Shown here piece after piece: positions 16,349 through 49,089 of a stretch of DNA of 64,000 nt. Both the position numbers and the translations under genes were made by a program. Each line of letters opens with the position of its first letter. Positions within the stretch are counted from its first letter, which is position 1. Location of the stretch: the NCBI GenBank assembly GCA_012514535.1, contig JAAZAA010000056.1, positions 3,932 to 67,931 on the forward strand, written 5' to 3'. Source of the stretch: Myxococcales bacterium (lineage in GTDB: Bacteria; Myxococcota_A; Polyangia; Polyangiales; Polyangiaceae). Below the pieces are notes generated by a model. It did not search any database. It had not been told where the DNA came from and worked only from the letters and a program-made list of their open reading frames with translations.

Positions 16349-16351
16349 ACC

Positions 16352-18941: not shown

Positions 18942-18957
18942 GCGCTCGAACTCCAGC

Positions 18958-18980: not shown

Positions 18981-19011
18981 CTACCCCACTCCTCCATTGT
19001 AGCCTCTCCCC

Positions 19012-28104: not shown

Positions 28105-28117
28105 GGAAGCGGGATAT

Positions 28118-28133
28118 TGCAGGCTTCGGGCCA
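28118..28133 (-). promoter_or_regulatory. sigma-54-type -24/-12 promoter-like motif in front of GH9 cellulase 1
   Basis: Minus strand reads gTGGCCC-GAAGC-CTGCAa. ATG 28104 lies 15 nt after the -12 C (28119). There is no Shine-Dalgarno in between (ATATCCCGCTTCC). Confidence 0.5.
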
Positions 28134-31810: not shown

Positions 31811-32090
31811 ATGCCGCAGACACCCCTCTCCGCCCCCAGGTCGTCCGAGCCCGCCTCTGGCTCCTCCCCCGCCCTGGACGGCACGTCCGCCGAGCTCCGT
31901 CACGGAGCTCCTCGGGTCCGGGAAGGCTTCAAGGCTTGGGCCGAGGCCGGCTTTCCGAGAGATCCCCACACGGGCAAGCCGGAGGCCAAGTACTTCCAAC
32001 GAGGCAATGACCGTTGGGTTCGAACGTCGTGGGAACAAGCCTTCGACTACGTGGCTCGCGCGCTCGACGACATTTCTCGCGTCTCCGCGC
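31811..32090 (+). pseudogene. Possible relic of a molybdopterin (DMSO-reductase family) oxidoreductase gene
   Basis: The translation ...FPRDPHTGKPEAKYFQRGNDRWVRTSWEQAFDYVARALDDISR resembles the conserved 'G-x-F-x-R-I/S-SW-D/Q-E-A-x-x-x-I-A' segment of Mo-bisMGD enzymes (cf. NarG ...RGGFVRSSWQEVNELIAA). I could not continue the similarity in any frame. Confidence 0.25.
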
Positions 32091-32391
32091 GGCGAGCCGT
32101 CGGCGTCCTCTCGGAGGGCGGGATGTCCGGGCGCCTCGGAGCCACTCCCCGCTGGGCGGCGCGCATGCCCTCGGTGACGCCGCGGCGGAGGAGGCGACCC
32201 ATTACGGCGCGCGCGAGAGCAAACGAGCAGACGATCGACGCAGCATCGGCGCGCGCGACCGCGCGCTCGGTGCTGCGACGTGCGCGAGCACTTGCACCAA
32301 CTCCCCGGTTGGGCCGGCGCAGGAAACCTTCCTCTCGCGACACCTGACCACCGTCATTGGCGTCAACGAGTCGGCACAACACCATCGGCTC

Positions 32392-34755
32392 ATGCATGGC
32401 GCGGAGCGAACGTGGACGCGAGCGGGTGTTGGCTGCGCGATCCTCCTGGCAGGGTTGGTCGCCTGTTCTTCCGGAGGCGAAGGCAGGGGCGCGGGAGGAG
32501 GGGGCGGCGGAAAGGCCAAAGGCTCGGGCGCGGGCGCCCAGGACGACGGCAACCCGCTGCTGGATCTCGACGGCGTCACGGAACACGTCAGCGAGCCCCC
32601 CGTCTGCTCCCCGGAGCCCTTCCCGCTGACATACACCTGCGAAGGCACCCCGGGTCCCTGGGCGGAGGCCCTGCAAAAGGCCCTGTGGTTCTTCAACGTG
32701 AACAAGTCCGGTCCCGGCGTGCACTGCACCGACGTGCAATGGCGCGGGGACGCCCACGTCGGCGACGGCGTGATCGCGCTCGATCCGGACGACCCCAACG
32801 GCGTGAACCTCAGCCAGGCCTTCATCGACGAGCACCGCGCGGTGCTCGATCCGGACGGCGACGGCACCGTCGATCTCGCGGGCGGCTATCACGACGCTGG
32901 CGACTACATCAAATTCACCCTGACGACGGCCTTCGCCGCGTCGATGATCGCCTGGAGCGTCTACGAGTACCCCGACTCCTACACGACGACGAGCCTCCTC
33001 GACGAGGCGCTGGGCCAGGTCCGCTGGGCGGCCGACTACTTCATGAAATCGACCTTCCGCGACGCGGACGGCAAGCTCGTCGCCTTCGCACATCAGGTCG
33101 CGGACGCGTCGGACCACTCCTGCTTCTGGATGCCCCCCGAGGTGCGTCGGACGGATCTGTGCCCCCGCAAGGCTTACTTCGTCCATGAAGGGCGCCCCGC
33201 CGCCGACGTCACCGCCGCGGCCGCCGCGACGCTCGCTCTCACGGGGATCGTCACCTACGCGCACCGCAAGACCGAAGCGGACGTCGAGTACGCCGAGCGC
33301 TGCCTCGACTACGCGAAAGCGTTGTATGAGTTCGCTGCACGGCACCCCGAGGCTCGCGCGAGCGACGACGGCGGCCTCTACACGTCGAACAGCTCGACGG
33401 ACGATTTGGCCTGGGCCGCGCTCTGGATCTATCTGGCCAACCCCGGGAAGAACAAGGCGTACCTCGACGCGATCGTGACCGGCGACAAGCCTTGGCTCTC
33501 CTTCGGGTCCCAGGCGAACATCCTCCAGCCAGGCCCCAACGGACAGTGGGTGCCTGCCTGGGCCGAGAGCTCACCCCACTCTTGGGACTCCATGCGCTCT
33601 GGCGTCATCGTCAAGCTGGCGCAGATCATGACGGATCGTGGCGATCCGATGGCTCCCCGCTGGGTGTCGATCGCACGAGAGATGGCGGAGGGCTTCGCCT
33701 CCGGGTCGTCGACGCCGGACGGCTTCTACGTCTACGCGAGCTGGGGATCGGCGCGCTACAACGCCGCCGCGCAGTTCACGACGCTGCTGTTCACCCGGGC
33801 GTTTCCGGACGACTCCGCCGCCGACACCCTCACCCGCTGGGCGCGCCGCCAGATCGATTACATCCTCGGCGACAACGACCTCGGGAAATCCTTCGTGATG
33901 GGCTACACGGACAGCTACGCGCTGCAGCCCCACCACGCGGCGGGGCACGCTTCCATCTACGGCCAGCCGAGCATCCCGGCCGAGAACCGCCACACCATTT
34001 GGGGCGCGCTCGTGAACGGACCGCAGGGTGACGGCTCCCACGTCGACGACCGGGACGACTACGGCTCGAACGAGGTCACGATCGACTACAACGCCGCCCT
34101 CGTCGCGGCGTTGGCGGCGCACTACGGCGATCGGGGCGCGGGAGAGTGCCCGCTCCTGTACTTCCCGCCGCTGGAGGATCCCATCGACGAGTTCTACGCG
34201 ATGGCCAACCTCAACGACGAACCCGGCGTGTGTCGGACGCAGGTCAACATCCGCACGATGAACGAGTCGATCCACCCACCGCGCTACGACGAGAAGCTCA
34301 CGACGCGCTTCTGGTTCGACGCCAGCGAGGTGATCGCCGCGGGCCTCGACCCCGTGAGCGCGGTGACGGCGCAGGTGATGCGTGACACGGGGACGAGCGC
34401 CACTCCGCCCGTGCCGACCCGGATCAGCGGCCCCATCGCCTGCGACACCGACGCCGGGGTTTACTACTTCGAGCTCGACCATACGGGCGCCAAGTTCTGG
34501 GGGCTCCTCCCCGTCCTCGGCGCGCCCCGAGACGTCCTGCTCGAGTACGGGCTCCCCCAGGCCGCGAGCTGCCCCTGGGACTCGAGCAACGACTGGAGCC
34601 TCCTGAACCTCCAGGTGGGAGGCACCGAGGAAGTCGCCAAGACGCCCTACGTCACCGTCTACAGCGACGGCGAGCTCATCTGGGGAGAGGAACCACCGTG
34701 CATGGGCGAGCGAAAGAAGGCCGAGCCTCCGCCGCCCCCCGTCTACGTCCGCTGA
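32392..34755 (+). CDS. Glycoside hydrolase family 9 endoglucanase with C-terminal CBM3c-like module, predicted lipoprotein
   Basis: ATG 32392 gives MHGAERTWTRAGVGCAILLAGLVAC. GH9 signature DLAGGYHDAGDYIKF, with WAALWIY and HHAAGHAS. The C-terminal ~200 aa are beta-rich (FYAMANLNDEPGVCRTQVNIRTMN). Confidence 0.9.
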   Translation: MHGAERTWTRAGVGCAILLAGLVACSSGGEGRGAGGGGGGKAKGSGAGAQDDGNPLLDLDGVTEHVSEPPVCSPEPFPLTYTCEGTPGPWAEALQKALWFFNVNKSGPGVHCTDVQWRGDAHVGDGVIALDPDDPNGVNLSQAFIDEHRAVLDPDGDGTVDLAGGYHDAGDYIKFTLTTAFAASMIAWSVYEYPDSYTTTSLLDEALGQVRWAADYFMKSTFRDADGKLVAFAHQVADASDHSCFWMPPEVRRTDLCPRKAYFVHEGRPAADVTAAAAATLALTGIVTYAHRKTEADVEYAERCLDYAKALYEFAARHPEARASDDGGLYTSNSSTDDLAWAALWIYLANPGKNKAYLDAIVTGDKPWLSFGSQANILQPGPNGQWVPAWAESSPHSWDSMRSGVIVKLAQIMTDRGDPMAPRWVSIAREMAEGFASGSSTPDGFYVYASWGSARYNAAAQFTTLLFTRAFPDDSAADTLTRWARRQIDYILGDNDLGKSFVMGYTDSYALQPHHAAGHASIYGQPSIPAENRHTIWGALVNGPQGDGSHVDDRDDYGSNEVTIDYNAALVAALAAHYGDRGAGECPLLYFPPLEDPIDEFYAMANLNDEPGVCRTQVNIRTMNESIHPPRYDEKLTTRFWFDASEVIAAGLDPVSAVTAQVMRDTGTSATPPVPTRISGPIACDTDAGVYYFELDHTGAKFWGLLPVLGAPRDVLLEYGLPQAASCPWDSSNDWSLLNLQVGGTEEVAKTPYVTVYSDGELIWGEEPPCMGERKKAEPPPPPVYVR

Positions 34756-35395: not shown

Positions 35396-38300
35396 TCAGC
35401 CCAGCTCCTCGAGGCCGCGCTTGGCGTCTTCGAGGCTCTCGTCGAGCTGCAGCGCCCGCTCGAAGTTCTGCTTGGCCTTGGGGAGCTCCCCGAGCTTCTG
35501 GTGGATCTGCCCGAGGCGGCAGAAGACCTCCGCCTTGGTCACCGGGGAGCTGTCGTCGAGCTTCTGCAGACGGAGGGCCAGGTACATCTTCTGGGCGTTC
35601 TTGTAGTCCTCCGTCTGGTACGCGAGGTCGCCGAGCTGCTTGAGCACGTGGACGTTCCCCGGCTCGATGCGGAACGCCTTGTTGAGCTCGTCGAGGGCCT
35701 TCTCCGTGTCGCCCTGGGACAGGTGAGCCGTCGCCAGGCGGCGATGGATCTCTGCGACCTCCTTCGATCGCTTGCCCGCGAAGCTCTCCACGACCTTCTG
35801 CAGGACCTCCACCGCCTCCGCACCCCGTCCCGAGGCGGAGTACGCGTCACTGAGCTCCATCAGCAGGTCACGGTCCTCCGGATCGAGCTCGCTGGCGCGG
35901 GCCAAGAGCTCCGCGGCCTGGGCGGTGTCATCCCGCTTCGTGCGATGCAGCTCCGCCGCTTCGCGGAAGAGCGCGACCTTGTCCGCTGGCTCCTCGGCGG
36001 CCTCTGCGTCCTCGACGAGCAAGGCGGCGAGCTTGTCCCACGCGCCGTTCGCCTCGTACTGGGACCGGAGGCGTCCACGCACCTCCTCGCTGGGCCCACC
36101 GCTCTGCAGAGCGCGTTCGAGGGCCGCCGCGGCCTTCTCGCCCTCTTCCAGCTCACGGTAGAGCTCCGCGAGCTCGACGCCTCGAGTCACGGCCTCCTCT
36201 CCTTCGAGGAGCGGCACGAGCCGTTCCAGGGCAGCGGCGCTCTCGGGGCGGCTCCCCTCGGCGTCATGTAGCCGCACGAGGGCCTCCAGCGCTCCCCGGT
36301 GGTTCGGGTCGCGCTCGAGCACCTCCTGATAGCGCTCCACCGCGCGGCCACCGTCCCCGAGGGGCCCCTCGTAGAGGTTCCCGAGACGGACGAGGAACCT
36401 GAGCTCGGACTCCTGGTCTCCTCGCTCCCGCGCCCCCTGGATCTGCGCATCGAGGAGATCAGCGAGCTCGTCGTTCCGGCCATCCTTCTCGTAGAGATCG
36501 CTGAGCATCACCACGGCGTCCGCCTGAGCGGGCAGCTCGTCCAGGATCGTCTGGAGGAGGTCGATGGCCGCGACGTGATCGTCCAGCCGCTCCACGAACA
36601 GGCGCGCGAGGTCGAGCCGCAAGCCGTTGCGTCGCTCCAGATCGTCCTCGAGATCGATCAGGCGCTCGCTGAGCCGCGACAGCTCCAGCCACTTCTCACC
36701 GCGCTCGTAGGCGGCCCAGAGGGCCTCCGACGCCTTGCGGTCCGTGGGCTCGTCCTCGAAGAGCTGCTCGAACAGCTCCGTGGCACGGTCCAGCTGCTCC
36801 AGGTGCTGGAGAGCGATCTCCGCGGCCTCGAAGCGCAGCGCGCGCACCGTCTTCATGTCGAGCTCGAGCTCCGCGCGGCGCACGAGCAGATCGAAGGTCT
36901 CCTGATGGTCCCCCGCGCTGCGCCGGGCCTCCGTGAGGCCAGCCAGCGCCCAGAGGTTCACCTCGTCGAGCTCGATCACCTTGCGCAGCAGCCGCTCCCC
37001 GAGGGCAGCGTCGCCGAGCCCGTCACAGAGCTCCTTGGCGCGTCGGTACATGCCGAGGCGCTCCTCGTCGTCGAGGGCCAGGCGCGCGCGCCGCTCCAAG
37101 GTCGCGATCAGGTCCCGCTCGCGCCCCGGATCGGTCTGCAGCGCCTCGAGCTCCGCCAGCACTTCGTCGTTGTCTGGCTCGAACTCGCTCGCCTTCACCA
37201 GAGCGGCCTCCGCCGCCGCGCGATCACCGAGTTTGTCCCGCTGCCAGGAGGCCACACGCACACACAGCTCGCGACCGCTCACGGGATCGAGGCCCTCCGC
37301 GGCCTCCACCGCCGACAGCACCGCCTGCGCTGCGTCCGCCCAGGCGCCGGTGATCGGGGCCAGGCGCTCGATCTCGTCCAACAGCGCGGCGTCGGTGGGA
37401 TCGTCCGCCAGACCTTGCTGCAGCACCTTCTGCGCGGCGCCAGGATCCTGGCAGTCTTCCTCCAGCACGCGCGCCAGCTCCCGACGCATGTCGATGCGCT
37501 CGACGATCGTCTCCGCCTTCGTCACGCGCCGCTCGAAGAGCCCCGCGAGGCGGTCCGTCTGTGACCGCTCCCGGTAGACGCCCTCCAGGACCTCGAAGGC
37601 CTCCTCGAAGCAGGTCGGCTCTTCCAGCAGCTGCTCCAAGAGCTCGGCCGCGCCCCGGTGTGCGCGATCGCGCTCGATGGCCAGGCGGAGCGATCCGAGC
37701 GCCTCGGCGGGTCGCTTCAGCTCCTCGAGCTGCAGACGACCCAGGCGGTAGTACAGCTCCGCCTGCTCCTCGTCGGCGTCCTCCAGGGCGAGACGCCTCT
37801 CCAGCACGCCCTGGAGCTCCTCGAGCTCACCGGACGCGGAGTAGAGGCGATCGAGAGCCTCGAGGAGCTCCGGCTGATCGCCCGCCTGCTCCGTCGCCCG
37901 GACGTAGGCGCGGATGGCGCGCTTGCCGTCGGACAGCGCCTGCTCCGCGAGCCGCCCGGCGCGCACCAGGAGGTCCCGCGCGATCTCGGCGTCGTAGGTC
38001 TCGCCGCCCCGCTCCTCGAGCGCGGCCACGTAGGCCTCCCAGTCGCCGGTCTGCGCCGCGAGCCGCTCGATCTCGACATGAAGATCGAGGGCCTCGGGCG
38101 TCTCTGCCAGTGCACGCAGGAGCGTCTTCAGCGCGTGCCTGGCGTTGCCGAGGGCCGACTCCTCCACCTGGGCGATCGCGCGCAGGGTCTCCGCCCGGGT
38201 GGACGGCTCCACCTCGATGGTGAGCCGCATCTCGAGCACGTCGATGAGCCGCTCGTGCAAGCCGCTCTGCCGCAAGACGGGCACGAGCACCTCGGCCGCG

Positions 38301-41300
38301 AGCCCCCGCAGGTGCTCGTGCTCCTGACCCAGCGCCCGCACGGCGTCGAGGCTCTCCTCGTCGTCGGAGCGCTCTTCCAGCACCAGGCGGTAGGCTTCGA
38401 TCGCCTCCTCGAAGCTCTCGAGCTTGCTCGCCAGGATGCGGCCGACCTCCGTGCGCAGCTGGATGCGGCGCTCGGGGTTCTGCTCCGTGCTCGCCTCGAG
38501 CCGCAGGTTGTCGAGCAGATCGGGCCACATCTCCTCGGCGCGATAGAGCCGGTTGAGCTCGGCCCGGGTCTCGGCGCTGTCCGGGCGCAGCGCGATCGCC
38601 TGCACCAGCGACTCGATCGCCCGCGGGCGGTCGATGAGATCCTGCTCCAGACGGCGGGCGGATCGCGTCATCAGCTCGAACTTGAGCTCGTCCTCCTCCG
38701 GCGTCGCGAGGTCGAAGCGCTGCTGGTAGAGGTCGACCAGACGCGCCGCCTCGCCGCGCCCCTCGTGGAGCGCGATCAGACAATCCAGGGTCGGCGCGTG
38801 GCTCGGATCGATGTCGAAGGCCTGCTCGTACGCCTCGAGGGCCCCCGGGGCGTCGTCGAGCATGTGCTGACGCAGCTCGCCGATGCGTCGCCACGCCTCC
38901 GCCCGCTCGTCCTCCTCGAACACGAGGTCCGCCTTGGCCAAGAGGGCCGTCTCGAGGGTCTTCCAGTCGCTCAGCAGCAGGGAGAGCCTCTCCATGCTCA
39001 GGACCGGCTCGAGCTCCCCTTGCTCGATGTCGTGCAGACCCACGTACGCGTTCAGGGCCTTCCTCGGATCGTCGAGGTGTCGGTCGTGGACGGCCGCGAG
39101 CTTCGCGAGCAGGTCGCGCTTGCCGAGGAGATCGGGGTGCTCGGCCAAGAGCTGGTCGTAGATCTCCGTGAGCTCGTCCCAGCTCTCGGTCGCCTCCACC
39201 AGGCGCTCGTAGTCGGCGCGTACGTCCGGGTCGTCGGGTTCGACGCGCACCGCCTCGGCGAGGACTCGCCGCGCCTTGCCCTGGTCCTGGCCCCGGGACT
39301 CCCAGAGCTCCGCCGTCTCCCGGAGGACGCTCACCTGCTCGGCGGGATCCGTCGCCAGGGAGAAGCGGTCCTCGTTCAGCTTGATGAGCCGCTTCCAGTC
39401 GTCGGCCGACTCGTAGAGCGGCCGCAGGATCTCCACGATCCGCTCCTTCAGGGTCTCGTGCTCACGGAACGCCTCCAGGGAGCGGATGGCCTCCGTGTGG
39501 GTGGGGAGCTCGCGCACGATCTCCTCGAGCTGGTCGACGGCGCGCTCCGTCTGGCCCAGCCGCGTGTCGAACAACCGCGCCAGCGACAGGCGGAAGTCCG
39601 CCGCCGCCTCGGGAGCGCTGTCTTCGGCGCGCCGCTGGTAGAGCTCGGCGAGATCCTCCCAGCGCTCCTTCGTCGTGTAGAGCTCCGTCAGGGCGTCGAG
39701 GGAGCTCGAGTCGCGCTCGTCGATCTCGAGCACCGCCTGGTGCGCCTCGATGGCCGCGTCCAGATCCTGGAGGTGGTCCCGCTGCAGGGCGGCCACCGTG
39801 TGCAGGAGGCGCACGCGGTCGTCCGGCTCGTAGCGATGCTCCAGCGCCGTGCCGTACAGCTCGACGCGCTCCTGATGAGCCTCCGCGCGGATCAAGATCG
39901 CGTCGATGGCCTCGAAGAGATCCTGAGCTTCGGGAGCGAACGCCAGCGCGCGCCGGTACAAGGGCAACGCCTGCGCGTCGTTGCCCCCTTCGACGAAGAG
40001 CTCCGCGGCGCGCCGCGCCAGCCGCGTGCTGCCCTCGTCGTCCACCTCGACGTGCTCGAGCCGGGCGGCGTAGATCTCCGCCAAGCGCTGGTGCGCTCCG
40101 GCGACCTTCGCCAGACGCTCGAGCTCCGAGACGATCTCCTCGTCGTTGATGTCGTCTTCGAGGAGCTGCGCCGAGATCTCGAGGGCGCCTGCGTAGTCTT
40201 CCTTCTGCTCCTCCTGGATCTGCGCCAACCGGGTGATGAGCTCCCGGCGCTCCTCGGGCACGTCGGAGCTCTCCAAGCGCGTCCGGAGCGCCGCGGTCAC
40301 GCGATCGTAGTCCGCGCGGAGCAGGTAGACCGGCTCGAGCAGCGTCGCCGCTCGGGCGCGCTGGGACGGCTCCTCGGCGCTCCCCTGCAGCTTCTCCAGA
40401 AGCTCGATCGCGCCCGCGTGCTGGTTGTCGCACTCCAGCGCCTGCTCGAGCTCGTCGAGCGCCCGCTCCACGTCGCCGCTGCGCTCTTCGGCGACGCGGG
40501 CGACCTGGACGCGCAGATCGGGCTCGCTCCCGTCCCGCTCGTCGATGCGGCGCTGCAGGAGGGACGTGAGGTCGTCCCAGCGCTCCGCCTTCGTGTAGAG
40601 GGTCTGGAGCGCTTCGACGGCCCTGGCGTCCAGGCTCGAGGTGATGATGGACTCGTACACCTCGATGGCCCGTTCGGGCTCGTTCAGCTCTCCGGACAGG
40701 AGCTCCGCCTGGCGATAGGACAGCTCACGCCGCTCGTCGTCCGAGTCGGACACCTCCGCCCGCCGCTCGAGAATCTCCAGGAGACGCGCCGCCTCCCCGG
40801 ACTCCCCGTAGAGCTCTTCGAGCGCCAACAGGGACGCTCGATCGTCCGCGCGGAGCTCGAGGACCTTGCAGTAGGTCTCCTTCGCTCGCTCCGGGGAGCC
40901 CAGCTCGTAGCGATGGAGCTCCGCCACGCGCCGGGTGACGTCCACCTGCAGGTCCCCGTCGAACAGCTCGGGGACGATGGCTTCGAGCACCTCGGCCTGC
41001 TCGCGGCGCCGACCGGTGGTGCCTGCGAGGCGATCCAGGGTGACGAGGTAAGGGGTGACGTCCCCTTGAGCCGCCGCGTCGCGCACGGCCCGCTCCGCGT
41101 AGCCGTAGGCCCGCGCCGCGTCGTCGAGGGCATCCTCGGCGATGCGGGTCGCCAGCTCGAGCTTGTCGAGGCGCTCGCTGGGATCGTCCGCGACCTCCAC
41201 CTCGATCTCGACGATCTCGATGAGCCGGGCGTGATCCCCCTCGGCCTCGTAGATCGGGTGGAGGATCTCCGCCGCCTCCATGCGCGCGGTGCGGTCCTCC

Positions 41301-44300
41301 AGCGCCAGCATCTCGTTGAGGGCGGCGCGGCTCGCCCCGTGGGTCGAGTCGATCGAGATCGCGCGCCGGTAGGCCTCCAGCGCCCCGGGGTAATCCTTGG
41401 TGTGATCCCGCCGGGAGTTGCCGAGGGCGGCGAGCACCGCGAGGCGCTCCTCGTCCGTCTCCACGATGTCCAGGTGCCGCTCGTAGGTCTCGTTCAGGTC
41501 GTCCCAGCGCTCGAGCTCCGCGAACAAGCCCTCCAGGGACTGGTAGATCTCCGCGGCGGGGCCGAACTCATCGACGATGGACTGGAACGTCTCCACCGCG
41601 GCGCTCTTCTGCTCCAGGCGATCGCGCTGCACCTCCGCCTGCCGCAGCAGGAGCGCGCGACGCTCCTCACCGCTGGCGAGATCACGACGTCGTTCGAGGA
41701 CGCCGACGAGCTGCTCCCAGCGACCGGCGCGGGTGTAGAGATCGTCGAGAGCCGCGAGGGCTTCCGGTTCGTCCGGGGTCTCCTCCAGGCGGGCCTCCCA
41801 GGCCGCGATCGCGCCCTCGGTGTCCCCGAGCACCTCCGCCGACAGCTCTCCGATGCGCGCCAGGAGCTCGCCGCGACGCTCTCCGTCGGACTCGAGCGCC
41901 ACCTGGAGCCGCAGCACGTCCGCGAGCTCCTCGGGGCGGTTCGATCCGACGTAGATGGCCTCGAGAGCCCGCGCCGCGGGCAGGACGAGATCCGCGTCCT
42001 CGGGGTCGAGCCCGAGCACCCGTCGATACGTCCCCTCGGCGGCGGTGATGTCGCCCAAGGCCTCCTGCTGCAGGGACGCCACCTGCATGAGGATCTCCCC
42101 CTTGAGGGGTGCCTCCTCCGCCGCGTCCGCGGTGGCGACGAGGACCTCCGCCGTCCGCGCGTACCGACCCAGACGCCTGCCCGACTCGACGAGCCGCTCG
42201 CGCAGCTCCGCGTCGAGGGGATCGAGGGGCGCCAGCTCCGCGAAGACCTCGAAGGACCCTTCGTCGTCGTGGAGCCGCTCGTTCCGGAGCGTGGCGATAC
42301 GCCGCAAGAGCTCGCGCCGCTCATCCTCCCGCTGACGCTGCAGCTCCTCGTCGAGGTCCTCGCCCTCCTCCGGGCGCAGCGAGTCGACGCGCACGCAGAG
42401 CACGCGCACGAGATCCCGGGTCTCGTCCCGGAGCTCGTAGACGGTCTCGAGCGCTCGCGCCGCCCTCCCCTTGACGTTCCCGACCTCCAACAAGAGCTCG
42501 GCGACCTCCCTCGCCTCCGTGTCGTTCGGGTCGTCGAGGAGCAGGCTCTCCACGTGTCCCACCGCGCGCTCGGGCTGGTGCAGCTCGAGGGCGAGCCGAG
42601 CGGCGCGCACCCGGAGCTCGCTCAGGGCCTCGCCGGACGCGCCCTCCAGGCGGAGCTCGACGATCTCCGAGAGCCGCTCGCTGCGACCCAGACGCGAGTA
42701 GAGCCGGTCCAGCGCCTCCAAAGAGGCCGCGTGCGCCGGATCGAGCCGCAGGATGCGCTCGTGGTAGCCTGCGGCCTTGGCCGCGTCGTCGATGATCTCC
42801 TCGGCGATCAGCGCGACCTCCGCGAGCATCTCGATGCGGCGCGCCTCGTCGTCGAGCCGCTCCGTGGCCCGCTCGTAGAGGGACTCGAGCTCCCCCCAGC
42901 GCTCCGCGCCCGTCAGGATCTCCTTCAGCCGCCCGAAGGCCTGCTCGTCGTCCGGATCCAGGCCCAGGATCATCTCGAGGTACGGGACGGCGCCCAGGGA
43001 GTCGCCGAGCACCGAGTCGTGCAAGCGCGCGGCGCGGCCGGCCAGCTCCCGCAGGATCTCCGGCTCCAGCCCCTCGGCGACGCTGGATCGCAGGGTCTCC
43101 CGATAGCGCTCGGCGAGCTCCGTGGGACGCCCCGCCAAGCTCCCGAGGCGATCGCCTCGATCCCAGAGCCCGAGCTCCCCCGGATGGCTCCCGAGGGCTT
43201 CCAGGATCGCGCCCAGGGCGGCGCCGAGCTCTCCGAGCTTCTCCTCGAAGACCGTGGCCAGGCGGTGATACAGGTCGATGCGCTCGCCCGCCTCCGCCGT
43301 CTCGCCGATCAGGACGACCAGCGCGCGCGCCTCCTGGCGCGCGTCACCCGTGAGCTCGAACTGCTCCACGAGCAGCCGCGCCGCCTCGGCGCGCACTCCG
43401 GGCTCGTCCACCACCTTCTGGAGCACGTCGATCGCACGGACGCGATCGCCGTCGAGCTCCAGCGCCTCCCTCGCCGCGCTCAACGCCTCGGCAGGCTGCG
43501 CCAGTCGATCGACGTAGAGCTCCGCCAGCTCGAGCGCCTTGGTCGCCCGCTCCTCGGCGGGCGCGAGCTGCCGCTGCCGCTCCAGGCCGACGGCGGCGGC
43601 GGTCCAATCCTCTGCCGCCAGGGCGAGCCGCACGCTGGCCGCGAGAGCCACGGCGTCGTCCGGCGCGAGCTCCAGCGCCCTCGAGTAGAGCTGCCGGGCT
43701 CGATCCACCTCACCGAACTCCTCCTCGAGCTGCGCCCAGTCGTTGAGCAACCGAGCGCGCTCCGCGTCGCTCTCGGCATGCTCCGTCCGGAGCTCGTGGA
43801 GCCAGCGCAGCCCATCGCGCCGGTCCCCGCGGCGCAGGATGTTCTCGAGCAGGCTGCCCGCCTCGACGTCCGTCGGGCGCCCCTCGAGGACCCCCTGCAG
43901 GCGGGCGACCGCGTCATCGACGCGCCCGAGCTCGTCCGCGTACACGGTGGCGAGCTTCAGACAGAGCAGCCGCTGTTCGTCGGCGTGGGCCGGGCTCGGA
44001 GCGGTCTGTACCGGCACCGCCTCGACGACCGTCGCCGTCTTCTTGCGCCGACGGCGCTTACGGCGCCCGCCACCGCCGGCGGCCTGCTCCAGCTCCTCGG
44101 AGGTGGGCGGCGCCTCGCTGACGGAGGCCTTCGTGACCTCGCCGGACTGCGCCATCTCGAGGGACGACGCATCGAGCTCGGCGAGACGCCCCTCGAGCGC
44201 CGACACCAGCTCGTCCCAGTGCCCGGACGCCCGCGCCGTCTGCTCGAGCAACTCCACGGCCCGGGGATCCGCCGGGCTGATCTCGTAGGCGCGGCGCGCG

Positions 44301-46879
44301 TGCTGCGCCGCCGTGCGCCGATCCATCAGCCTCTGACCGGTGACCTCCACGAGCTTCTCGAGCCACGCGATCTTCTCCTCGGGCGACGCGCTCCCCTGGA
44401 GCATCACCTCGTACAGCGCGGGCATCCGCGCCCACTTCTCGTCCGCCTCGTAGAGCGGCAGGAGCTTGCTGGCGGCCCGCGTGTCCGCCGGATCGTTGGC
44501 CAGGATGCGCTCGTAGGACCGGAACGCCCGATCGGGTTGCTGCAGCTCCTCTTCGTAGATGCGCGCGGCGCGATAGCTGAGCGCGATCTTCGTCGCGGGC
44601 TCCGCCGCCCGATCCGCGGCGTTGCTCAACACCTCGACGAGCCCCTCGTGATCCTGCTGGGACGCGTAGAGCTCCTCGAGGGCGTCGAAATCCTCGCTGC
44701 GCAGGAACGTGTCCCGCAACACACGCATGGCGCGCGGCTGCCGCGGCTCGAGCTCGAGGGCCCGGCGCCAGGCGCCAATCGCCTGCTCGGCGTCGCCGAG
44801 GTGGTCCGAGTAGACAGAGCCGAGCTTCTGCAGCACGGCGAGCTTGGCGTCGACGTCCTCGAGGGCCGCGAGGCGACGCTCGAGGGCCTCCGCCAGAGTC
44901 GTCCAGTCCTTCGACCGCTCGGCGTGACGCTCGAGCCGATCCAGGACATCCATGCGCGAGGGATCCAGATCCAGGATCTCGCGGTAGTAGGCGACGGCGT
45001 CCGCGCCGCGGTTGAGACGCTCCGCGGCCAGCTGCGCCATCTCGCGGAGCAGCGGCACGCGATCGTGCCCCTGTCGCCCGGAGAGCTGCTCCTCATACAG
45101 AGCGAACAGCTCCTTCCAGGCGCGGCGCTTCCGGTAGAGCTCCTCGAGGCGCTCGGTCGCCTCCTCGTCCGTCGGATCGAGCGCGTGGAGCGCCGCGTAG
45201 GCGTCCATGGCGTGCTGCACGTTGGAGAACTGATCCAGCCAGCGGCGCGCCACCTCACGGAACAGGCGCTTCTTCTCGTCGACGTCCGAGACCAGCTCCG
45301 CCAAGAGCTGCTGACTGCTCAGGAGATCGCGCCAGCGCCCGAGCTTCTGGTAGAGGTCGACCAGCTCGCGCACCTCGCCGATGTCCTGCTCGTCGAGCTT
45401 GCCGTCGAGCTGCACGATCTGATTGAGCACGCCGACGAGCGCCGTGTCGCTCTTCACGTACTCACGGTACACGCCCGCGATCTCCCGCAGGACGGCCAGG
45501 CGCTCCTCGTAGGCCGACTCCGGGGTGCGCTCGAGCTGCTGGTTGAGCAGCTGCACGAGGGCGTTGTGCCCCTGCGTCTGCTTGTAGAGGCGCTTGAGAG
45601 AAGCGCGCGCCTCCGCGTTGTCCGGATCCTGGCGCAGGATGCTCTTGTACTGCTCGATCGCCTTCTGGGCGTTCGCCTGCGACTCCGCGAGCTGCGCCAC
45701 CTCCTGCGCGATCTCCGTGCGGCGCGGATCGCCTTCCGGCATCGCGCGCTGCGCCGCGGTCAGGATCTGAGCCAGCCCCGCGTCGTCGTCCAGGGACTTC
45801 TTGTACTCGCGATAGAACGCGAGCATGCCGTCGTTCGCCGGATCGATCTTGCGGATCCGCTCGAACCAGACCTCCGCGTCCGCCAGAGACTCGCGCTTGC
45901 GCCAATGGAGCATCGCGATCTGGAGCATCTCGCCCAGCTTGTCCTCGCCCGTGACGGTCGAGGTCTCGAGGGGCCGCTCATAGACACGCACCAAGGCGTC
46001 CCACCGCTCGTTTTGTGAGAAGAACGTGGTGACGTAGCCCAGGGCGTCCTGTTGGTTCGGTGCGTCGACGAGCACCCGATCGTAGGCGCGCGCGGCCCGC
46101 TCCTCGTCTCCGAGGCGATGCAGGTAGATGCGCGCCAGGCGCACGCCCGCCGCGACGCGCACGGACGGATCCGTGCTGCGATCCGCGACGCGCTCCAGCA
46201 CGCGCGCCGCCTCCTCCCACTTGGACTGGCGCCGGTAGACGGTCTCCAGCAGCCGCGCGGCGTCCGCGTTCGTGGGATCGAGGCGCACGGCTCGCTCGAG
46301 GAGCTCGGCGATCACCTCGAAGCGCGGGTTGGGCGCATGGCGCACCTCGACCTCGGCGGCGCGCATCAGCATCGAGCTCTGGTACGCCTCGTCGCCGCCC
46401 CCCTCCGCCTCGGTGACGTAATTCTCTGCGGCCTCCGCCCAGGTGCGACGTCGATCCTCGAGCTCGGCGAGCCGCGAGAGCGCCTCCGCATCCTCGGGGT
46501 TCAGCTCGAGCAGACGCTCGGCGGCCGCCGCGGCGGCCGTCTCGTCGAACAGCTCGGAGGACAGGACCCGTACATGAGCGCGTAGGTAGTCGGCTTCGCG
46601 CGGGGTCCCCGCCGTCGCCCGGAGCGACAACTCCAACAGGCGGGCCACGGCCTCCCACTCGCCACGCTCCACGTGCCGCTGGCGCGCGGCGTCGATGACC
46701 TCGAGGCTCTCCTCCAGCCCCAGGTCGCCATCCGGAGCCGCCAATGCTTCGGCGAGGGCAGCCCAGGCATCCTCGGCGTCGGGGTTGGCTTGAAGGGTTC
46801 CTAGAGCCGTTCGGACCGTCTGTGAATCCATCCTCGTTCCCGTCGCATCACCCGACTTCACAAAGTGCGACCATTGCAC
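35396..46879 (-). CDS. Giant (~3,810-3,827 aa) cytoplasmic protein built almost entirely of TPR-like helical repeats
   Basis: Single uninterrupted 11.5-kb ORF. No signal peptide or TM segment seen. A ~75-80 aa unit recurs dozens of times (A-[IV]-x-x-Y-x-x-[IVL]-L-x-x-D-P-x-x-x-x-A-L-x-x-L-x-x-L-Y-x-x-x-x-x-W-x-[ED]-L). Acidic, Leu/Ala/Glu/Arg-rich. Start is GTG 46879 or ATG 46831. Confidence 0.85.
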   Translation of the reverse strand: MQWSHFVKSGDATGTRMDSQTVRTALGTLQANPDAEDAWAALAEALAAPDGDLGLEESLEVIDAARQRHVERGEWEAVARLLELSLRATAGTPREADYLRAHVRVLSSELFDETAAAAAAERLLELNPEDAEALSRLAELEDRRRTWAEAAENYVTEAEGGGDEAYQSSMLMRAAEVEVRHAPNPRFEVIAELLERAVRLDPTNADAARLLETVYRRQSKWEEAARVLERVADRSTDPSVRVAAGVRLARIYLHRLGDEERAARAYDRVLVDAPNQQDALGYVTTFFSQNERWDALVRVYERPLETSTVTGEDKLGEMLQIAMLHWRKRESLADAEVWFERIRKIDPANDGMLAFYREYKKSLDDDAGLAQILTAAQRAMPEGDPRRTEIAQEVAQLAESQANAQKAIEQYKSILRQDPDNAEARASLKRLYKQTQGHNALVQLLNQQLERTPESAYEERLAVLREIAGVYREYVKSDTALVGVLNQIVQLDGKLDEQDIGEVRELVDLYQKLGRWRDLLSSQQLLAELVSDVDEKKRLFREVARRWLDQFSNVQHAMDAYAALHALDPTDEEATERLEELYRKRRAWKELFALYEEQLSGRQGHDRVPLLREMAQLAAERLNRGADAVAYYREILDLDPSRMDVLDRLERHAERSKDWTTLAEALERRLAALEDVDAKLAVLQKLGSVYSDHLGDAEQAIGAWRRALELEPRQPRAMRVLRDTFLRSEDFDALEELYASQQDHEGLVEVLSNAADRAAEPATKIALSYRAARIYEEELQQPDRAFRSYERILANDPADTRAASKLLPLYEADEKWARMPALYEVMLQGSASPEEKIAWLEKLVEVTGQRLMDRRTAAQHARRAYEISPADPRAVELLEQTARASGHWDELVSALEGRLAELDASSLEMAQSGEVTKASVSEAPPTSEELEQAAGGGGRRKRRRRKKTATVVEAVPVQTAPSPAHADEQRLLCLKLATVYADELGRVDDAVARLQGVLEGRPTDVEAGSLLENILRRGDRRDGLRWLHELRTEHAESDAERARLLNDWAQLEEEFGEVDRARQLYSRALELAPDDAVALAASVRLALAAEDWTAAAVGLERQRQLAPAEERATKALELAELYVDRLAQPAEALSAAREALELDGDRVRAIDVLQKVVDEPGVRAEAARLLVEQFELTGDARQEARALVVLIGETAEAGERIDLYHRLATVFEEKLGELGAALGAILEALGSHPGELGLWDRGDRLGSLAGRPTELAERYRETLRSSVAEGLEPEILRELAGRAARLHDSVLGDSLGAVPYLEMILGLDPDDEQAFGRLKEILTGAERWGELESLYERATERLDDEARRIEMLAEVALIAEEIIDDAAKAAGYHERILRLDPAHAASLEALDRLYSRLGRSERLSEIVELRLEGASGEALSELRVRAARLALELHQPERAVGHVESLLLDDPNDTEAREVAELLLEVGNVKGRAARALETVYELRDETRDLVRVLCVRVDSLRPEEGEDLDEELQRQREDERRELLRRIATLRNERLHDDEGSFEVFAELAPLDPLDAELRERLVESGRRLGRYARTAEVLVATADAAEEAPLKGEILMQVASLQQEALGDITAAEGTYRRVLGLDPEDADLVLPAARALEAIYVGSNRPEELADVLRLQVALESDGERRGELLARIGELSAEVLGDTEGAIAAWEARLEETPDEPEALAALDDLYTRAGRWEQLVGVLERRRDLASGEERRALLLRQAEVQRDRLEQKSAAVETFQSIVDEFGPAAEIYQSLEGLFAELERWDDLNETYERHLDIVETDEERLAVLAALGNSRRDHTKDYPGALEAYRRAISIDSTHGASRAALNEMLALEDRTARMEAAEILHPIYEAEGDHARLIEIVEIEVEVADDPSERLDKLELATRIAEDALDDAARAYGYAERAVRDAAAQGDVTPYLVTLDRLAGTTGRRREQAEVLEAIVPELFDGDLQVDVTRRVAELHRYELGSPERAKETYCKVLELRADDRASLLALEELYGESGEAARLLEILERRAEVSDSDDERRELSYRQAELLSGELNEPERAIEVYESIITSSLDARAVEALQTLYTKAERWDDLTSLLQRRIDERDGSEPDLRVQVARVAEERSGDVERALDELEQALECDNQHAGAIELLEKLQGSAEEPSQRARAATLLEPVYLLRADYDRVTAALRTRLESSDVPEERRELITRLAQIQEEQKEDYAGALEISAQLLEDDINDEEIVSELERLAKVAGAHQRLAEIYAARLEHVEVDDEGSTRLARRAAELFVEGGNDAQALPLYRRALAFAPEAQDLFEAIDAILIRAEAHQERVELYGTALEHRYEPDDRVRLLHTVAALQRDHLQDLDAAIEAHQAVLEIDERDSSSLDALTELYTTKERWEDLAELYQRRAEDSAPEAAADFRLSLARLFDTRLGQTERAVDQLEEIVRELPTHTEAIRSLEAFREHETLKERIVEILRPLYESADDWKRLIKLNEDRFSLATDPAEQVSVLRETAELWESRGQDQGKARRVLAEAVRVEPDDPDVRADYERLVEATESWDELTEIYDQLLAEHPDLLGKRDLLAKLAAVHDRHLDDPRKALNAYVGLHDIEQGELEPVLSMERLSLLLSDWKTLETALLAKADLVFEEDERAEAWRRIGELRQHMLDDAPGALEAYEQAFDIDPSHAPTLDCLIALHEGRGEAARLVDLYQQRFDLATPEEDELKFELMTRSARRLEQDLIDRPRAIESLVQAIALRPDSAETRAELNRLYRAEEMWPDLLDNLRLEASTEQNPERRIQLRTEVGRILASKLESFEEAIEAYRLVLEERSDDEESLDAVRALGQEHEHLRGLAAEVLVPVLRQSGLHERLIDVLEMRLTIEVEPSTRAETLRAIAQVEESALGNARHALKTLLRALAETPEALDLHVEIERLAAQTGDWEAYVAALEERGGETYDAEIARDLLVRAGRLAEQALSDGKRAIRAYVRATEQAGDQPELLEALDRLYSASGELEELQGVLERRLALEDADEEQAELYYRLGRLQLEELKRPAEALGSLRLAIERDRAHRGAAELLEQLLEEPTCFEEAFEVLEGVYRERSQTDRLAGLFERRVTKAETIVERIDMRRELARVLEEDCQDPGAAQKVLQQGLADDPTDAALLDEIERLAPITGAWADAAQAVLSAVEAAEGLDPVSGRELCVRVASWQRDKLGDRAAAEAALVKASEFEPDNDEVLAELEALQTDPGRERDLIATLERRARLALDDEERLGMYRRAKELCDGLGDAALGERLLRKVIELDEVNLWALAGLTEARRSAGDHQETFDLLVRRAELELDMKTVRALRFEAAEIALQHLEQLDRATELFEQLFEDEPTDRKASEALWAAYERGEKWLELSRLSERLIDLEDDLERRNGLRLDLARLFVERLDDHVAAIDLLQTILDELPAQADAVVMLSDLYEKDGRNDELADLLDAQIQGARERGDQESELRFLVRLGNLYEGPLGDGGRAVERYQEVLERDPNHRGALEALVRLHDAEGSRPESAAALERLVPLLEGEEAVTRGVELAELYRELEEGEKAAAALERALQSGGPSEEVRGRLRSQYEANGAWDKLAALLVEDAEAAEEPADKVALFREAAELHRTKRDDTAQAAELLARASELDPEDRDLLMELSDAYSASGRGAEAVEVLQKVVESFAGKRSKEVAEIHRRLATAHLSQGDTEKALDELNKAFRIEPGNVHVLKQLGDLAYQTEDYKNAQKMYLALRLQKLDDSSPVTKAEVFCRLGQIHQKLGELPKAKQNFERALQLDESLEDAKRGLEELG

Positions 46880-46959
46880 TCTCGTCTTCGGATGCGGGAC
46901 GAGAGTAGCGCCCTCCGATGACCGGGAACAACCCTTGCAAATCAGTGATTCCGCTCCGT

Positions 46960-47970
46960 TTATGGAGAGCTCACTGACCCGGCTGAGTCCACCCGATTGC
47001 CCGCGCGATCGCCCTCGCCTGCGGGCTCTGCGCCCGAGGTCGGGCCCTCTCGCACATCACCGGAATTCATCACCCGTGCGAGCTTTTCACGCACGGCGGG
47101 GTTCGCACCGAGCGCCCGCGCCCGCTCGAGGGCGTGCCGCGCCTCCGCGCGACGCCCCAGCCGCCAAAGCGCGTAAGCCCGCCCCAGCTGCACGTCCCCG
47201 TCTTTCGGCCGCAGGGCCGCCAGAGCGTCGTACTGGGCGAGCGCCTCGTCCGGTTGGTCCAGGCGCAAGGCGAGGGTCGCGAGGCCCACGCGGTGTTCGG
47301 GCGCATGGGGGGCGATGCGCAGCCCCCGCTCGTAAGCGCCCTTTGCCTCCATGTACCTACCTTGATGCACACGGACCAGGCCGAGGGCGTGCCAGGTGGT
47401 CGCGTCCTCGGGATCGCGCCGCAGAGCCTCCTCGAGACGCGGCGCCGCCCACTCGAGCTCTCCCCAGCGGGCGGCGCGCAGCCCCCCAGCGCGCGGTCCC
47501 CGAGGATCCTGGGGCGCCACGGCCGCTCCCCGGTCGAAGAAGGCCAGCGCCTCGTCGTAGCGGTGAGCGAGCTCGTAGGCGTGGCCGAGCTCGATCCAGG
47601 GCGTCGGATCCCGCTCGCCCAGGCGCGCTGCCAGGCGCGCGGCCTCGCGCTCCGCCGCTCCCAGATCCCCGCGGTGCCCGAGCACGCGGACGAGCTGACG
47701 CCGCGCCTCCACGTCGTCGGGTGCGTGCTCCAGGTGCTCCTCGAGGAGGCGCTGCGCCTCCTCCGTCCGGCCAGCGTCCACGAGGAGGGAAGCGCGGGCG
47801 ACCGGCGACGTCGGCGCACACCCGGAGCACGGCGCGACGAACAGAGCACCTCCGAGCAGGACCCCGCGGAGCAGCACGCCATGGAGCAGGGCGCCGCGGA
47901 GCAGGGCGCGCAGCCCCCCCGAGGGGACGGCCCGCCTGGGGGGACCGGGAGAGCCGAGGGAGCGCCGCAC
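46960..47970 (-). CDS. TPR-repeat lipoprotein
   Basis: [12 protein letters not shown] lipobox-like signal, then ~6 canonical TPRs ([61 protein letters not shown]). Its stop lies 80 nt upstream of the giant TPR ORF on the same strand. Confidence 0.75.
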
Positions 47971-48141: not shown

Positions 48142-49089
48142 ATGGGTCAGTTCGATGAGCTACAGACGATCGGCGTGGTCGGAGCGGGGCAGATGGGCGT
48201 CGGCATCGCGCAGGTCTGCGCGGCGGCGGGCCTCGCGGTGACCCTGTCGGACGTCTCTCGGGAGCAGGCCCGCGCGGGGCTCGACCGCATGAAGGCGCGC
48301 CTCGATGGCCAGGTCGAGCGCGGCAAGGTGGCGGCGGCGGATCGGGACGCGCTCCTCGAGAGGATCCAGGTGGTCGACCTCGCCGGGCACGGCGCCGCGC
48401 AGCTCGTGATCGAGGCGGCCACGGAGCGTGAGGAGCTCAAGCTCGAGCTCTTTCGGCAGCTCGACGCGAGCACGCCCCCGGAGACCCTGCTCGCGAGCAA
48501 CACGTCGAGCATCTCGATCACGCGCATCGCCGCCGCGACTCGGCGCGCCGACCGGGTGGGCGGCCTCCACTTCATGAACCCCGTCCCGGTGATGCAGCTG
48601 GTCGAGGTCGTTCGTGGCCTCCAGACGTCCTCCGAGACCCTGGCCCAGCTCACGGCCCTCGCCCACCGCGTCGGCAAGCAGACGGTCGCGAGCGAGGACC
48701 GTCCGGGGTTCATCATCAACCGCGTCCTCATCCCATTCTTGAACGAGGCTTGCCTGGCCCTGAGCGAGGGCGTCGCGAGCGTCGCCGACATCGACGCGGG
48801 GATTCGGCTCGGGCTCAACCACCCCCTGGGTCCCCTCGCCCTCGCGGATTTGATCGGCCTGGATACGGTGTTGGCGATCGGTGAGGTGCTCCACCGGGAC
48901 TTCGGTGACAGCAAGTACCGACCAGCTCCCCTGCTCCGCAACCTGGTCGCCGCCGGCTGGCTGGGACGCAAGACGGGCAAAGGATTCTACGTGTACGGCC
49001 CCAAGGGCGAGCTGGGAGAGCCCAACCCCCTGCTCCGCGGGGATCCTTCCCTCGGAGCCGCCGCCGGAGAGGGGAGGGAGCGCTCGTGA
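48142..49089 (+). CDS. hbd: 3-hydroxybutyryl-CoA / 3-hydroxyacyl-CoA dehydrogenase
   Basis: [30 protein letters not shown] fold, [57 protein letters not shown]. Confidence 0.9.

Follow-up and report, generated by a model that had tools for sequence, protein, structure and literature searches.

A giant tetratricopeptide repeat protein of a Polyangiaceae myxobacterium, probably a cytoplasmic scaffold of the GltI/AgmK family

A giant gene and its small upstream partner

The window, by which we mean the whole 64-kb stretch of DNA analysed, carries on its reverse strand a single stop-free ORF of 3,827 codons (35396..46879), uninterrupted as the earlier note had described it, and upstream of this a gene for a small TPR lipoprotein (Table 1). 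Homologues of the giant protein begin at the ATG at 46831 (MDSQTVRTALG..., M17 of the ORF), and the listed GTG start at 46879 probably lies 16 codons too early. The product from this ATG has 3,811 aa, a mass of 429 kDa and a pI of 4.66.

Table 1. Position of the genes and sequence features in the window
Feature	Position	Strand	Details
Small TPR lipoprotein gene	46960..47970	-	336 codons as listed; alternative GTG at 47877
Signal peptide and lipobox region of the small TPR protein	47818..47913	-	residues ~20-51; Cys48/Cys51
Spacer between lipoprotein gene and giant gene	46832..46959	-	128 nt
Giant TPR protein gene	35396..46831	-	3,811 aa, counted from the conserved ATG (46831); stop codon 35396-35398
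Array of 72-aa double-TPR units, ~47 copies, 4 helices per unit	35786..46534	-	residues ~100-3682
Most conserved block	44456..45751	-	residues ~361-792; 57-69% identity among 57 sequences
Main indel-rich low-complexity linker	43913..44167	-	residues 889-973
Conserved polybasic patch RRKRRRRKK	44039-44065	-	inside the linker, residues 889-973
C-terminal cluster of canonical 34-aa TPRs	35411..35938	-	residues ~3632-3807; ends the protein

The gene is real and intact. That it might instead be an assembly artefact or a pseudogene, produced by expansion or collapse of repeats or by a chance frame, is barely conceivable: spurious long ORFs do arise in GC-rich DNA, an antisense ORF of 2,786 aa overlaps the giant gene, and frameshifted versions (P0125/L094 and sce2920/2921) exist among the public copies, but the evidence already in hand contradicts this reading. 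A GC3 of 0.91, usual for genuine genes of the window, whose GC content is 70%, is confined to the sense frame. Long or near-identical DNA repeats were not found in the gene, where the best repeat families measure 30-58 nt with 60-83% identity, and collapse or expansion of repeats during assembly is therefore not plausible. The same gene is carried, with its ORF intact, by 56 other Polyangiaceae genomes, including the complete genome of Minicystis rosea; the 57 sequences share ~53% identity in an almost gap-free protein alignment, and most of the copies measure 3,774-3,813 aa. Orthologues of similar length, which the earlier note had proposed to seek, thus exist, and the assembly errors and frameshifts that it had named as possible refutations are excluded because the gene is conserved in these 56 genomes. 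The confident structure models described below also speak against an artefact.

The small upstream ORF gives strong TPR matches and has an N-terminal hydrophobic stretch followed by the two cysteines of Table 1, and its orthologues have clear lipoboxes (e.g. LAGC, LGC). The earlier note's TPR lipoprotein of 336 aa on the same strand therefore stands, with the correction that the gap, given there as 80 nt, is 128 nt when counted from the ATG. No terminator-like site was found in this spacer, so that co-transcription of the two genes seems likely; promoter and terminator scans otherwise gave nothing useful. The pairing of the two genes is conserved, as the small lipoprotein gene is the upstream partner at 66 of the best 80 Polyangiaceae loci, and a small signal-peptide TPR gene followed by the giant recurs in Lujinxingia and one further genome of group 1. 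The small protein resembles its Lujinxingia counterpart by generic TPR similarity in several registers, and orthology of the partners therefore rests on architecture and position. It could be identified neither with GltE/AglT (22.2 bits, E 6e-5, against a cutoff of 225 for NCBIfam NF033758) nor with the social-motility TPR lipoprotein Tgl (34.6 bits, against a cutoff of 225 for NF033762).

Repeat architecture and predicted fold

The repeat period of the giant protein is 72 aa (BLOSUM autocorrelation, z=14.9 at lag 72 versus shuffles) and not the 75-80 residues of the earlier note, whose quoted motif agrees nonetheless with the unit consensus, AIEALERALELDPDDAEALEALERLYEAAGRWEELAELLERRLELAEDPEERLELLRRLA followed by ~12 residues. 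An HMM trained on the protein's own sequence matches 52 times at a loose threshold, over 74% of the chain (residues ~100 to ~3680), and 47 near-complete units pass a stricter one, which supplies the count of units that had been called for. Pfam matches are of TPR type only, with the canonical TPRs at the extreme C-terminus, in keeping with the earlier description of a protein made almost entirely of TPR-like repeats and devoid of an enzymatic domain. The same description held for the other gross properties of the chain: no TM-like segment was found (the highest Kyte-Doolittle mean over 19 residues is 1.27, and no such stretch exceeds 1.6), no N-terminal signal was seen, the N-terminus being hydrophilic by hydropathy, and the composition is strongly acidic (D+E 21.6%, net charge -322). 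The most conserved block holds invariant W-L-[DE]-Q-F-S-N-V-Q and AERL motifs.

Structure prediction of segments, also proposed in the earlier note, gave confident all-helical hairpin arrays at both ends of the protein, with an AlphaFold2 pLDDT of 89.9 for the first 700 residues and 91.3 for the last 800, and the models thus show the protein as a helical solenoid. The best Foldseek matches of the N-terminal model are the TPR scaffolds Ctr9 (of Paf1C), Ski3, TTC21B (IFT139, of IFT-A) and OGT, while the PDB, searched by sequence, yielded only designed consensus TPRs and OGT, both aligning with the C-terminal cluster. These long eukaryotic TPR/HAT solenoids (the TPR domain in the case of OGT) are of the same fold class, being continuous helical-hairpin arrays with a role as assembly platforms. 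They are, however, 3-5 times shorter than the giant, with 11-17% identity and TM-scores of 0.14-0.33 (query-normalised), and common descent is not implied.

Relatives and their genomic context

An exhaustive HMMER search with an N-terminal profile retrieved 2,920 cluster representatives at E<=1e-30, and 127 of the best 150 of these are 3,000-4,300 aa long. Most of 143 long members give single BLASTP HSPs over most or all of their length, down to ~22% identity. The 72-aa period recurs in all 12 members profiled (z 15-28 per family group tested), the groups tested are all acidic, with 42-48 detectable units each, and the length across classes stays within 3.7-4.1 kaa. The closest genomes are Polyangiaceae, which bears out the myxobacterial host supposed in the earlier note, and all family members with names belong to Myxococcota or Bradymonadia; in cluster look-ups of 30 representatives the named entries were MAGs and Lujinxingia only. 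Where they can be named, the groups obtained by clustering appear to follow taxonomic classes (Polyangia, Bradymonadia, and unplaced Myxococcales or Myxococcota MAGs). Queries of a word-indexed protein database with the first 700 aa, the last 800 aa or the tail of a glt-linked relative brought back fragments and shorter proteins, none above ~1,700 aa and none with a Myxococcus name. Distant matches of ~1,350 aa (P0103 and P0111) and a fragment (P0056) have uninformative gene contexts.

Linkage to glt genes is not universal in this family. No Glt or Agl family match was found in the scanned ORFs of the window, nor any glt or agl gene in the 10-kb flanks of 80 related Polyangiaceae loci, where the conserved neighbours encode a 3-hydroxyacyl-CoA dehydrogenase, an unknown lipoprotein, EF-P, a BamD-like TPR protein and ThiD. 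Five other Polyangia or Myxococcota members likewise lie among housekeeping genes, and in other Polyangia lineages the giant adjoins genes for a DAG kinase, an acyltransferase and a DUF374 protein. By contrast, the giant of Lujinxingia litoralis (WP_111729458, 4,109 aa) directly follows gltD/E/F/G-like genes. The cluster before it encodes, in order, a large TPR protein that is GltD-like by size and position only, GltE-like (159 bits), CglF/GltF-like and GltG-like (395 bits, E 8e-118) proteins, a myxo_SS_tail protein and a TPR lipoprotein of 309 aa. As the GltE-like gene and that for the small TPR lipoprotein occur here separately, the small protein is a component distinct from GltE. In a Myxococcales MAG, the gene that follows the giant P0250 (4,076 aa) encodes a Zn-ribbon and GYF protein matching the GltJ model and the AgmX/PglI tail.

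Relationship to GltI and possible roles

GltI (AgmK, MXAN_4863) of Myxococcus xanthus has been described as a 'giant 3822 residues long' with many TPRs, cytoplasmic and without a signal peptide. It is a cytoplasmic component of the Agl-Glt gliding, or bacterial focal adhesion, machinery: gltI mutants are non-motile and GltI-YFP is found in focal-adhesion clusters, this role and localisation being known from M. xanthus only. In the Cystobacterineae, gltG and gltH lie upstream of gltI and gltJ downstream. Luciano et al. (2011) reported GltI homologues of 4,074-4,104 aa in Anaeromyxobacter and of 4,089 aa in Stigmatella, adjoining gltJ, as well as the pair sce2920 and sce2921 of Sorangium cellulosum (1,774+2,081 = 3,855 aa), two locus tags past gltG (sce2918). 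Two of our sequences were considered as Sorangium-type genes and rejected: P0199, which has the same length of 3,855 aa, lies outside a glt cluster and is not assignable to Sorangium, and P0125, which might have been a split gene, is a frameshifted copy with the synteny of the window.

We compared the giant with GltI through the published description and through glt-linked proxies. The two are nearly identical in size (3,811 and 3,822 aa), consist almost wholly of TPR-like repeats without signal peptide or TM segment, and are both restricted to Myxococcota; relatives of the giant that share its 72-aa unit and its number of units adjoin GltG-, GltJ-, GltE- and GltF-like genes. At the level of architecture, these comparisons place the giant in the GltI/AgmK family. 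There are also differences. The window locus lacks gltH, gltJ and gltG as neighbours, and the giant is preceded by the small TPR lipoprotein gene, whereas in M. xanthus gltH precedes gltI, then comes a stretch with doubtful ORFs. [quoted passage not shown]

Positional agreement with the glt-linked giants is limited. Comparison of P0209 and P0250 with the giant gives single long HSPs with 22-24% identity, the scores being inflated by repeat composition. A unit-by-unit reciprocal-best-hit test was underpowered (even for an orthologue with 50% identity, only 18 of 29 pairs fell on the diagonal) and segments of 400 aa were used instead. Mapped in this way, the gltJ-linked type (P0250, P0221 and P0260) is not colinear with the giant (Spearman -0.31 to 0.17), so that homology to it rests on the shared unit, unit number and size, not on position. 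Onto the glt-cluster giants of Bradymonadia only residues ~400-1000 map positionally, the most conserved block being the sole block to do so. The WxxFSN motif occurs in none of 47 glt-linked members of groups 1 and 2, and AERL in four of them, off-position. Lujinxingia WP_111729458 illustrates both sides: it has the 72-aa period, 42 detectable units, a canonical TPR cluster near its end, a preceding TPR lipoprotein gene on the same strand and the block for residues ~400-1000 at the equivalent position, but its identity to the giant is ~24%, it carries an N-terminal extension of ~190 aa and ~580 extra C-terminal residues, it sits in a glt cluster, and it lacks both WxxFSN and the polybasic patch.

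That the likeness to GltI merely reflects the TPR consensus and a biased composition, the giant being a generic bacterial TPR protein, seems highly improbable. The low identity to glt-linked members would fit such a view, as would the absence of a family-specific model from Pfam and NCBIfam, which give generic TPR matches only, and the occurrence of ~1,350-aa proteins with similar repeats in unrelated contexts. It leaves unaccounted for, however, a family-wide combination of an exact 72-aa period, 42-48 units, 3.7-4.1 kaa, acidity and a terminal canonical TPR cluster, the confinement of named members to Myxococcota and Bradymonadia, the conserved lipoprotein partner shared by the glt-cluster members and the block held in common, by position, with the Bradymonadia giants.

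We therefore weigh two sorts of GltI relative. Our preferred reading, to which we give a probability of roughly 0.6, is that the giant is a cytoplasmic TPR scaffold of the GltI/AgmK family. It is somewhat unlikely, though to be taken seriously, that it is instead a diverged relative or paralogue that lost or never had a role in gliding and acts, with its probably co-transcribed periplasmic TPR lipoprotein, as a general cytoplasmic Polyangia ruler or scaffold in another envelope process such as outer-membrane or lipid biogenesis, secretion or polarity. The Polyangiaceae synteny (EF-P, BamD-like protein, fatty-acid oxidation gene and unknown lipoprotein, without glt genes) and the DAG kinase, acyltransferase and DUF374 genes beside it elsewhere in Polyangia would suit this, as would the missing gltJ and C-terminal domain, the lack of colinearity with the gltJ-linked type, and the lineage-specific N-terminal motifs and polybasic patch. 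The glt-linked homologue of S. cellulosum lies at a different kind of locus, beside gltG, and a glt-linked copy could thus coexist with the window type in Polyangiaceae. Yet no assembly appeared twice among the best 80 genome loci (a scan with motifs specific to the subgroup itself, hence blind to diverged paralogues), and the groups appear to follow taxonomic classes, the pattern predicted by vertical descent of one gene. The module of small TPR gene and giant also occurs inside the Lujinxingia glt cluster, and detachment from glt genes is less telling where motility genes are often scattered, as in myxobacteria; G1, G2 and M1 are separate motility clusters in M. xanthus. A more specific proposal, which we consider doubtful, is that the Polyangia type forms a separate GltI branch, a functionally distinct cytoplasmic ruler of fixed length (~3,785 aa, ~100 nm) that is independent of the Agl-Glt motor and serves, together with a periplasmic TPR lipoprotein of its own, some other process spanning the envelope; its single conserved polybasic patch would anchor the otherwise very acidic rod at the membrane or at a different anionic partner.

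If the giant is a GltI/AgmK-family scaffold, a gliding function in this organism would follow by analogy with M. xanthus. We infer its physical length and binding partners: some 47 double-TPR units, or ~200 helices, would form a very long acidic cytoplasmic superhelix on the order of 100 nm, which would bring together soluble regulators and the cytoplasmic domains of Glt proteins in the inner membrane. The small TPR lipoprotein faces the periplasm; it is probably translated from a transcript shared with the giant, and probably forms part of one envelope-spanning assembly with it. The cytoplasmic TPR scaffold or ruler, possibly for motility, that the earlier note proposed gains support from the AlphaFold2 models, the matches to TPR-scaffold folds and the GltI/AgmK family; its view that function cannot be read from the sequence was too cautious, given that a characterised relative exists in GltI.

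Among the large components of the myxobacterial gliding machine, GltI is the one least understood, and published models of it are predictions only. Apparently undescribed in the literature searched are a family built on one exact 72-residue unit, the detachment of the gene from glt genes in many lineages, a recurring partnership with a small TPR lipoprotein that the M. xanthus cluster lacks, and a unit number and total length held almost constant. Repeat proteins usually vary in copy number, and this near-constancy therefore argues for selection on length itself, as one would expect if the protein is a ruler or a platform with fixed geometry. For annotation, the comparison offers a name and a testable role for what is now a 'tetratricopeptide repeat protein' in hundreds of Myxococcota genomes.

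The giant gene, its product and its repeats

The window is about 70% GC throughout. The long minus-strand ORF is taken as coding because of its GC3 of 0.91; the antisense ORF inside it falls below the GC3 filter of 0.82 and is therefore read as a shadow of the real gene in GC-rich coding DNA, not as a gene. Homologue alignment places the start at the ATG at 46831 (MDSQTVRTALG...), 16 codons inside the listed ORF, which gives a giant TPR protein of 3,811 aa (429 kDa, pI 4.66, net charge -322). No membrane-spanning hydrophobic window was found in a scan of the whole protein, which, judged from its absent export signals, is predicted to be cytoplasmic.

Features of the window, with positions in window coordinates
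Feature	Position	Strand	Remarks
NirB-NirD fused to uroporphyrinogen-III synthase-like N-terminus	1979-5773	-	
DsrO/DsrP-like Fe-S and membrane pair	8049-10524	-	
NapA-like molybdoenzyme	11427-13838	+	score just under cutoff
Radical SAM/SPASM protein	16352-17434	+	
MoaA	19012-20040	+	
Glycoside hydrolase family 9 (cellulase-type)	25330-28395	-	
Glycoside hydrolase family 9 (cellulase-type)	32014-34755	+	
ORF of the giant	35396-46879	-	3,827 codons
Antisense ORF	37658-46018	+	2,786 codons
Linker of the giant	43913-44167	-	
Polybasic run RRKRRRRKK	44039-44065	-	inside linker
Inverted repeat in spacer between lipoprotein gene and giant ATG	about 46880-46906	-	8 bp, CTCTCGTC ... GACGAGAG, 11-nt loop, no T-run
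Small TPR lipoprotein	46960-47970	-	336 codons, upstream of giant, same strand
3-Hydroxyacyl-CoA dehydrogenase	domains start near 48154	+	
626-aa lipoprotein-like protein	49086-50966	+	N-terminus LLPLAAC

BLOSUM autocorrelation of the protein has a sharp maximum at lag 72 (z=14.9), with smaller ones at the helix period (17) and the TPR period (34). An HMM trained on the giant's own sequence gives 52 hits at a loose threshold (74% coverage, residues ~100 to ~3680) and 47 near-complete units at a stricter one, with unit starts commonly 71-73 residues apart. The repeat motif quoted in the earlier note agrees with the HMM consensus, and its unit of 75-80 residues is corrected to 72. AlphaFold2 models of residues 1-700 (pLDDT 89.9) and of the last 800 residues (pLDDT 91.3) are both confident and consist of helical hairpins only, about four helices per 72-aa unit, so that the giant is modelled as a long helical-hairpin solenoid. 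Its Foldseek matches are likewise long TPR/HAT scaffolds (Ctr9, Ski3, IFT-A TTC21B, OGT, APC subunits), and in a PDB sequence search the sole matches were OGT and designed consensus TPRs, which align with the cluster of canonical TPRs at the C-terminus (residues ~3632-3807). The gene contains no tandem array at the DNA level (no repeat family above 58 nt or 83% identity); the units are old and diverged at that level.

Two side observations concern the other genes of the window. Downstream of the giant lies a region flanked by the two glycoside hydrolase genes; these are non-syntenic in related loci and would fit a cellulolytic member of the Polyangiaceae. The stretch 1979-20040 carries a set of nitrogen-oxide and cofactor genes.

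Conservation in the Polyangiaceae

When one genome per GTDB species was scanned, 280 relatives came up. The top 80 all belong to Polyangiaceae, to Polyangiales or to unplaced Myxococcota; the complete Minicystis rosea genome is among them, and one MAG contig reaches 95% identity in its best segment. On every contig of sufficient length the frame stays open for ~3,740-3,930 codons; this and the GC3 bear out the uninterrupted ORF first reported as genuine and well observed. Once cut back to the Met that is conserved, most of the 57 full-length sequences have lengths of 3,774-3,813 aa, and they align almost gap-free at ~53% identity to the window protein, with a conservation peak of 57-69% identity at residues ~361-792. 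Gaps fall mainly in a low-complexity linker (residues ~865-975), with a few at 1225-1296 and 1441-1512. Length and register are thus conserved, and the gene is genuine and strongly constrained, not an artefact.

The linker is the main indel-rich, P/A/S/E-rich segment of the giant, and a run of 6-9 K/R residues occupies this position in every Polyangiaceae orthologue examined. The giant is otherwise extremely acidic, and this conserved basic patch, the only one, lies in a linker that is flexible. The run is missing from the glt-linked groups; a similar one lies near residue 180 in some other Polyangia members.

One orthologue on a public long contig (L094, 10001-21356) is split into called genes of 2,068, 139, 512 and 1,073 aa with its tail out of frame, which looks like sequencing frameshifts. 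The same may apply to Sorangium cellulosum So ce56, for which Luciano et al. list as GltI homologue a split pair, sce2920+sce2921 (jointly 3,855 aa), located two locus tags past gltC-D-E-F-G.

Relationship to the gliding protein GltI

An exhaustive HMMER run of the giant's N-terminal profile (E<=1e-30) yielded 2,920 cluster representatives, and 127 of the best-scoring 150 are 3,000-4,300 aa long. BLASTP of the window protein against 143 long representatives gave, for most, single HSPs over most or all of the length, at identities down to ~22%. Clustering produced four groups: 1) that of the window protein, including members labelled Polyangia; 2) a sister group of unplaced Myxococcota; 3) Lujinxingia litoralis and other Bradymonadia; 4) a small group of ~4,080-aa proteins. 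The 72-aa period occurs in all 12 members profiled from these groups (z 15-28), with 42-48 detectable units in the 11 counted. An outlier of 7,720 aa (P0245, on a 34.8-kb ENA contig), about twice the usual length, forms its own cluster and may represent a whole giant fused or duplicated in tandem.

Genomic contexts link two of the four groups to the gliding machine. At the Lujinxingia locus the order starts with a large TPR protein, which matched no Glt model and is GltD-like solely in its size and position. Then come GltE-like (159 bits), CglF/GltF-like and GltG-like (395 bits, E 8e-118) proteins, a short protein with an AgmX/PglI tail, a TPR lipoprotein of 309 aa and the 4,109-aa giant. In a Myxococcales MAG, a 4,076-aa giant precedes a Zn-ribbon+GYF protein matching the GltJ model, with an AgmX/PglI tail match above cutoff. 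Five other members (Polyangia or unplaced Myxococcota) lie among housekeeping genes, two of them with a DUF374 gene after the giant. In two Polyangia lineages different from that of the window (L090, 15260-15904; L092, 20463-21128) a DUF374 gene overlaps the giant's stop codon, which suggests a different conserved downstream partner there.

GltI (AgmK, MXAN_4863) of Myxococcus xanthus is needed for gliding, forms fixed, MglA-dependent focal-adhesion clusters as a YFP fusion, and is required for AglZ localisation. A 2025 modelling study describes it as a ~1,100 Å TPR rod, predicts six GltG FHA-domain sites and two GltJ GYF-domain sites on it, and suggests a role for it in bringing several motor units together. 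Its homologues in Anaeromyxobacter (4,074-4,104 aa) and Stigmatella (4,089 aa) all adjoin gltJ (Luciano et al.). When 400-aa segments of the window protein were mapped onto relatives, colinearity was perfect within its own group. The sister group and the more distant of the Polyangia subgroups (P0174) were colinear with it over the first ~1,000 residues and over much of the C-terminal part (4-5 of the five final segments). In Bradymonadia giants consistent placement was limited to the block at residues ~400-1000, and no colinearity with the gltJ-linked type was detectable by this mapping. Outside the first two groups, the signature motifs of the N-terminal block are nearly absent (among 47 glt-linked members, WxxFSN occurs in none and AERL in four, off-position). 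The glt-linked proxies continue for ~470-580 residues beyond the canonical TPR cluster, an extension absent from the window protein. Membership of the GltI family is therefore well supported at the level of architecture; that the protein is a strict GltI orthologue and serves gliding in the window's organism is inferred. One copy was found per assembly with scan motifs specific to the window protein's subgroup, and a second, glt-linked copy in Polyangiaceae is possible.

The partner lipoprotein and a proposed role

The TPR lipoprotein that the earlier note placed upstream of the giant was confirmed: it has strong TPR hits, an N-terminal hydrophobic stretch followed by Cys48/Cys51, canonical lipoboxes in its orthologues and a position directly upstream of the giant in 66 of 80 loci. 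The plus-strand ORF seemingly overlapping its gene encodes the 3-hydroxyacyl-CoA dehydrogenase, a divergent neighbour because its domains begin only near 48154. Beyond the lipoprotein gene, divergent synteny is conserved for this dehydrogenase, the 626-aa protein (syntenic in 66/80 related loci, without a Pfam or NCBIfam match, its start overlapping the dehydrogenase stop), EF-P, a BamD-like TPR protein and ThiD. As a gene for a small exported TPR protein followed by a giant recurs in the Lujinxingia Glt-like cluster, the window pair is the same two-gene module. Another Bradymonadia-group genome has a 291-aa signal-peptide TPR protein immediately 5' of the giant, without glt genes; in Haliangium a 296-aa TPR protein adjoins gltG and gltF. 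The lipoprotein cannot touch the giant directly, since it faces the periplasm or outer membrane; if the two cooperate, they would be two parts of one envelope-spanning assembly.

In consensus TPR structures the superhelix has ~8 TPRs per turn and a pitch near 7 nm. From such geometry and the GltI literature, the giant would be a rod in the 100-nm range offering many equivalent concave binding grooves. It could recruit regulators and the cytoplasmic domains of Glt proteins in the inner membrane, and so cluster motor units at focal adhesions. The scaffold for motility guessed at from the sequence alone is borne out by the characterised relative, GltI. Further points of interest are that the unit is exactly 72 aa, that the length hardly varies, that in Polyangia the gene stands apart from the glt genes, that it has a lipoprotein gene as partner, and that the protein carries a polybasic patch.
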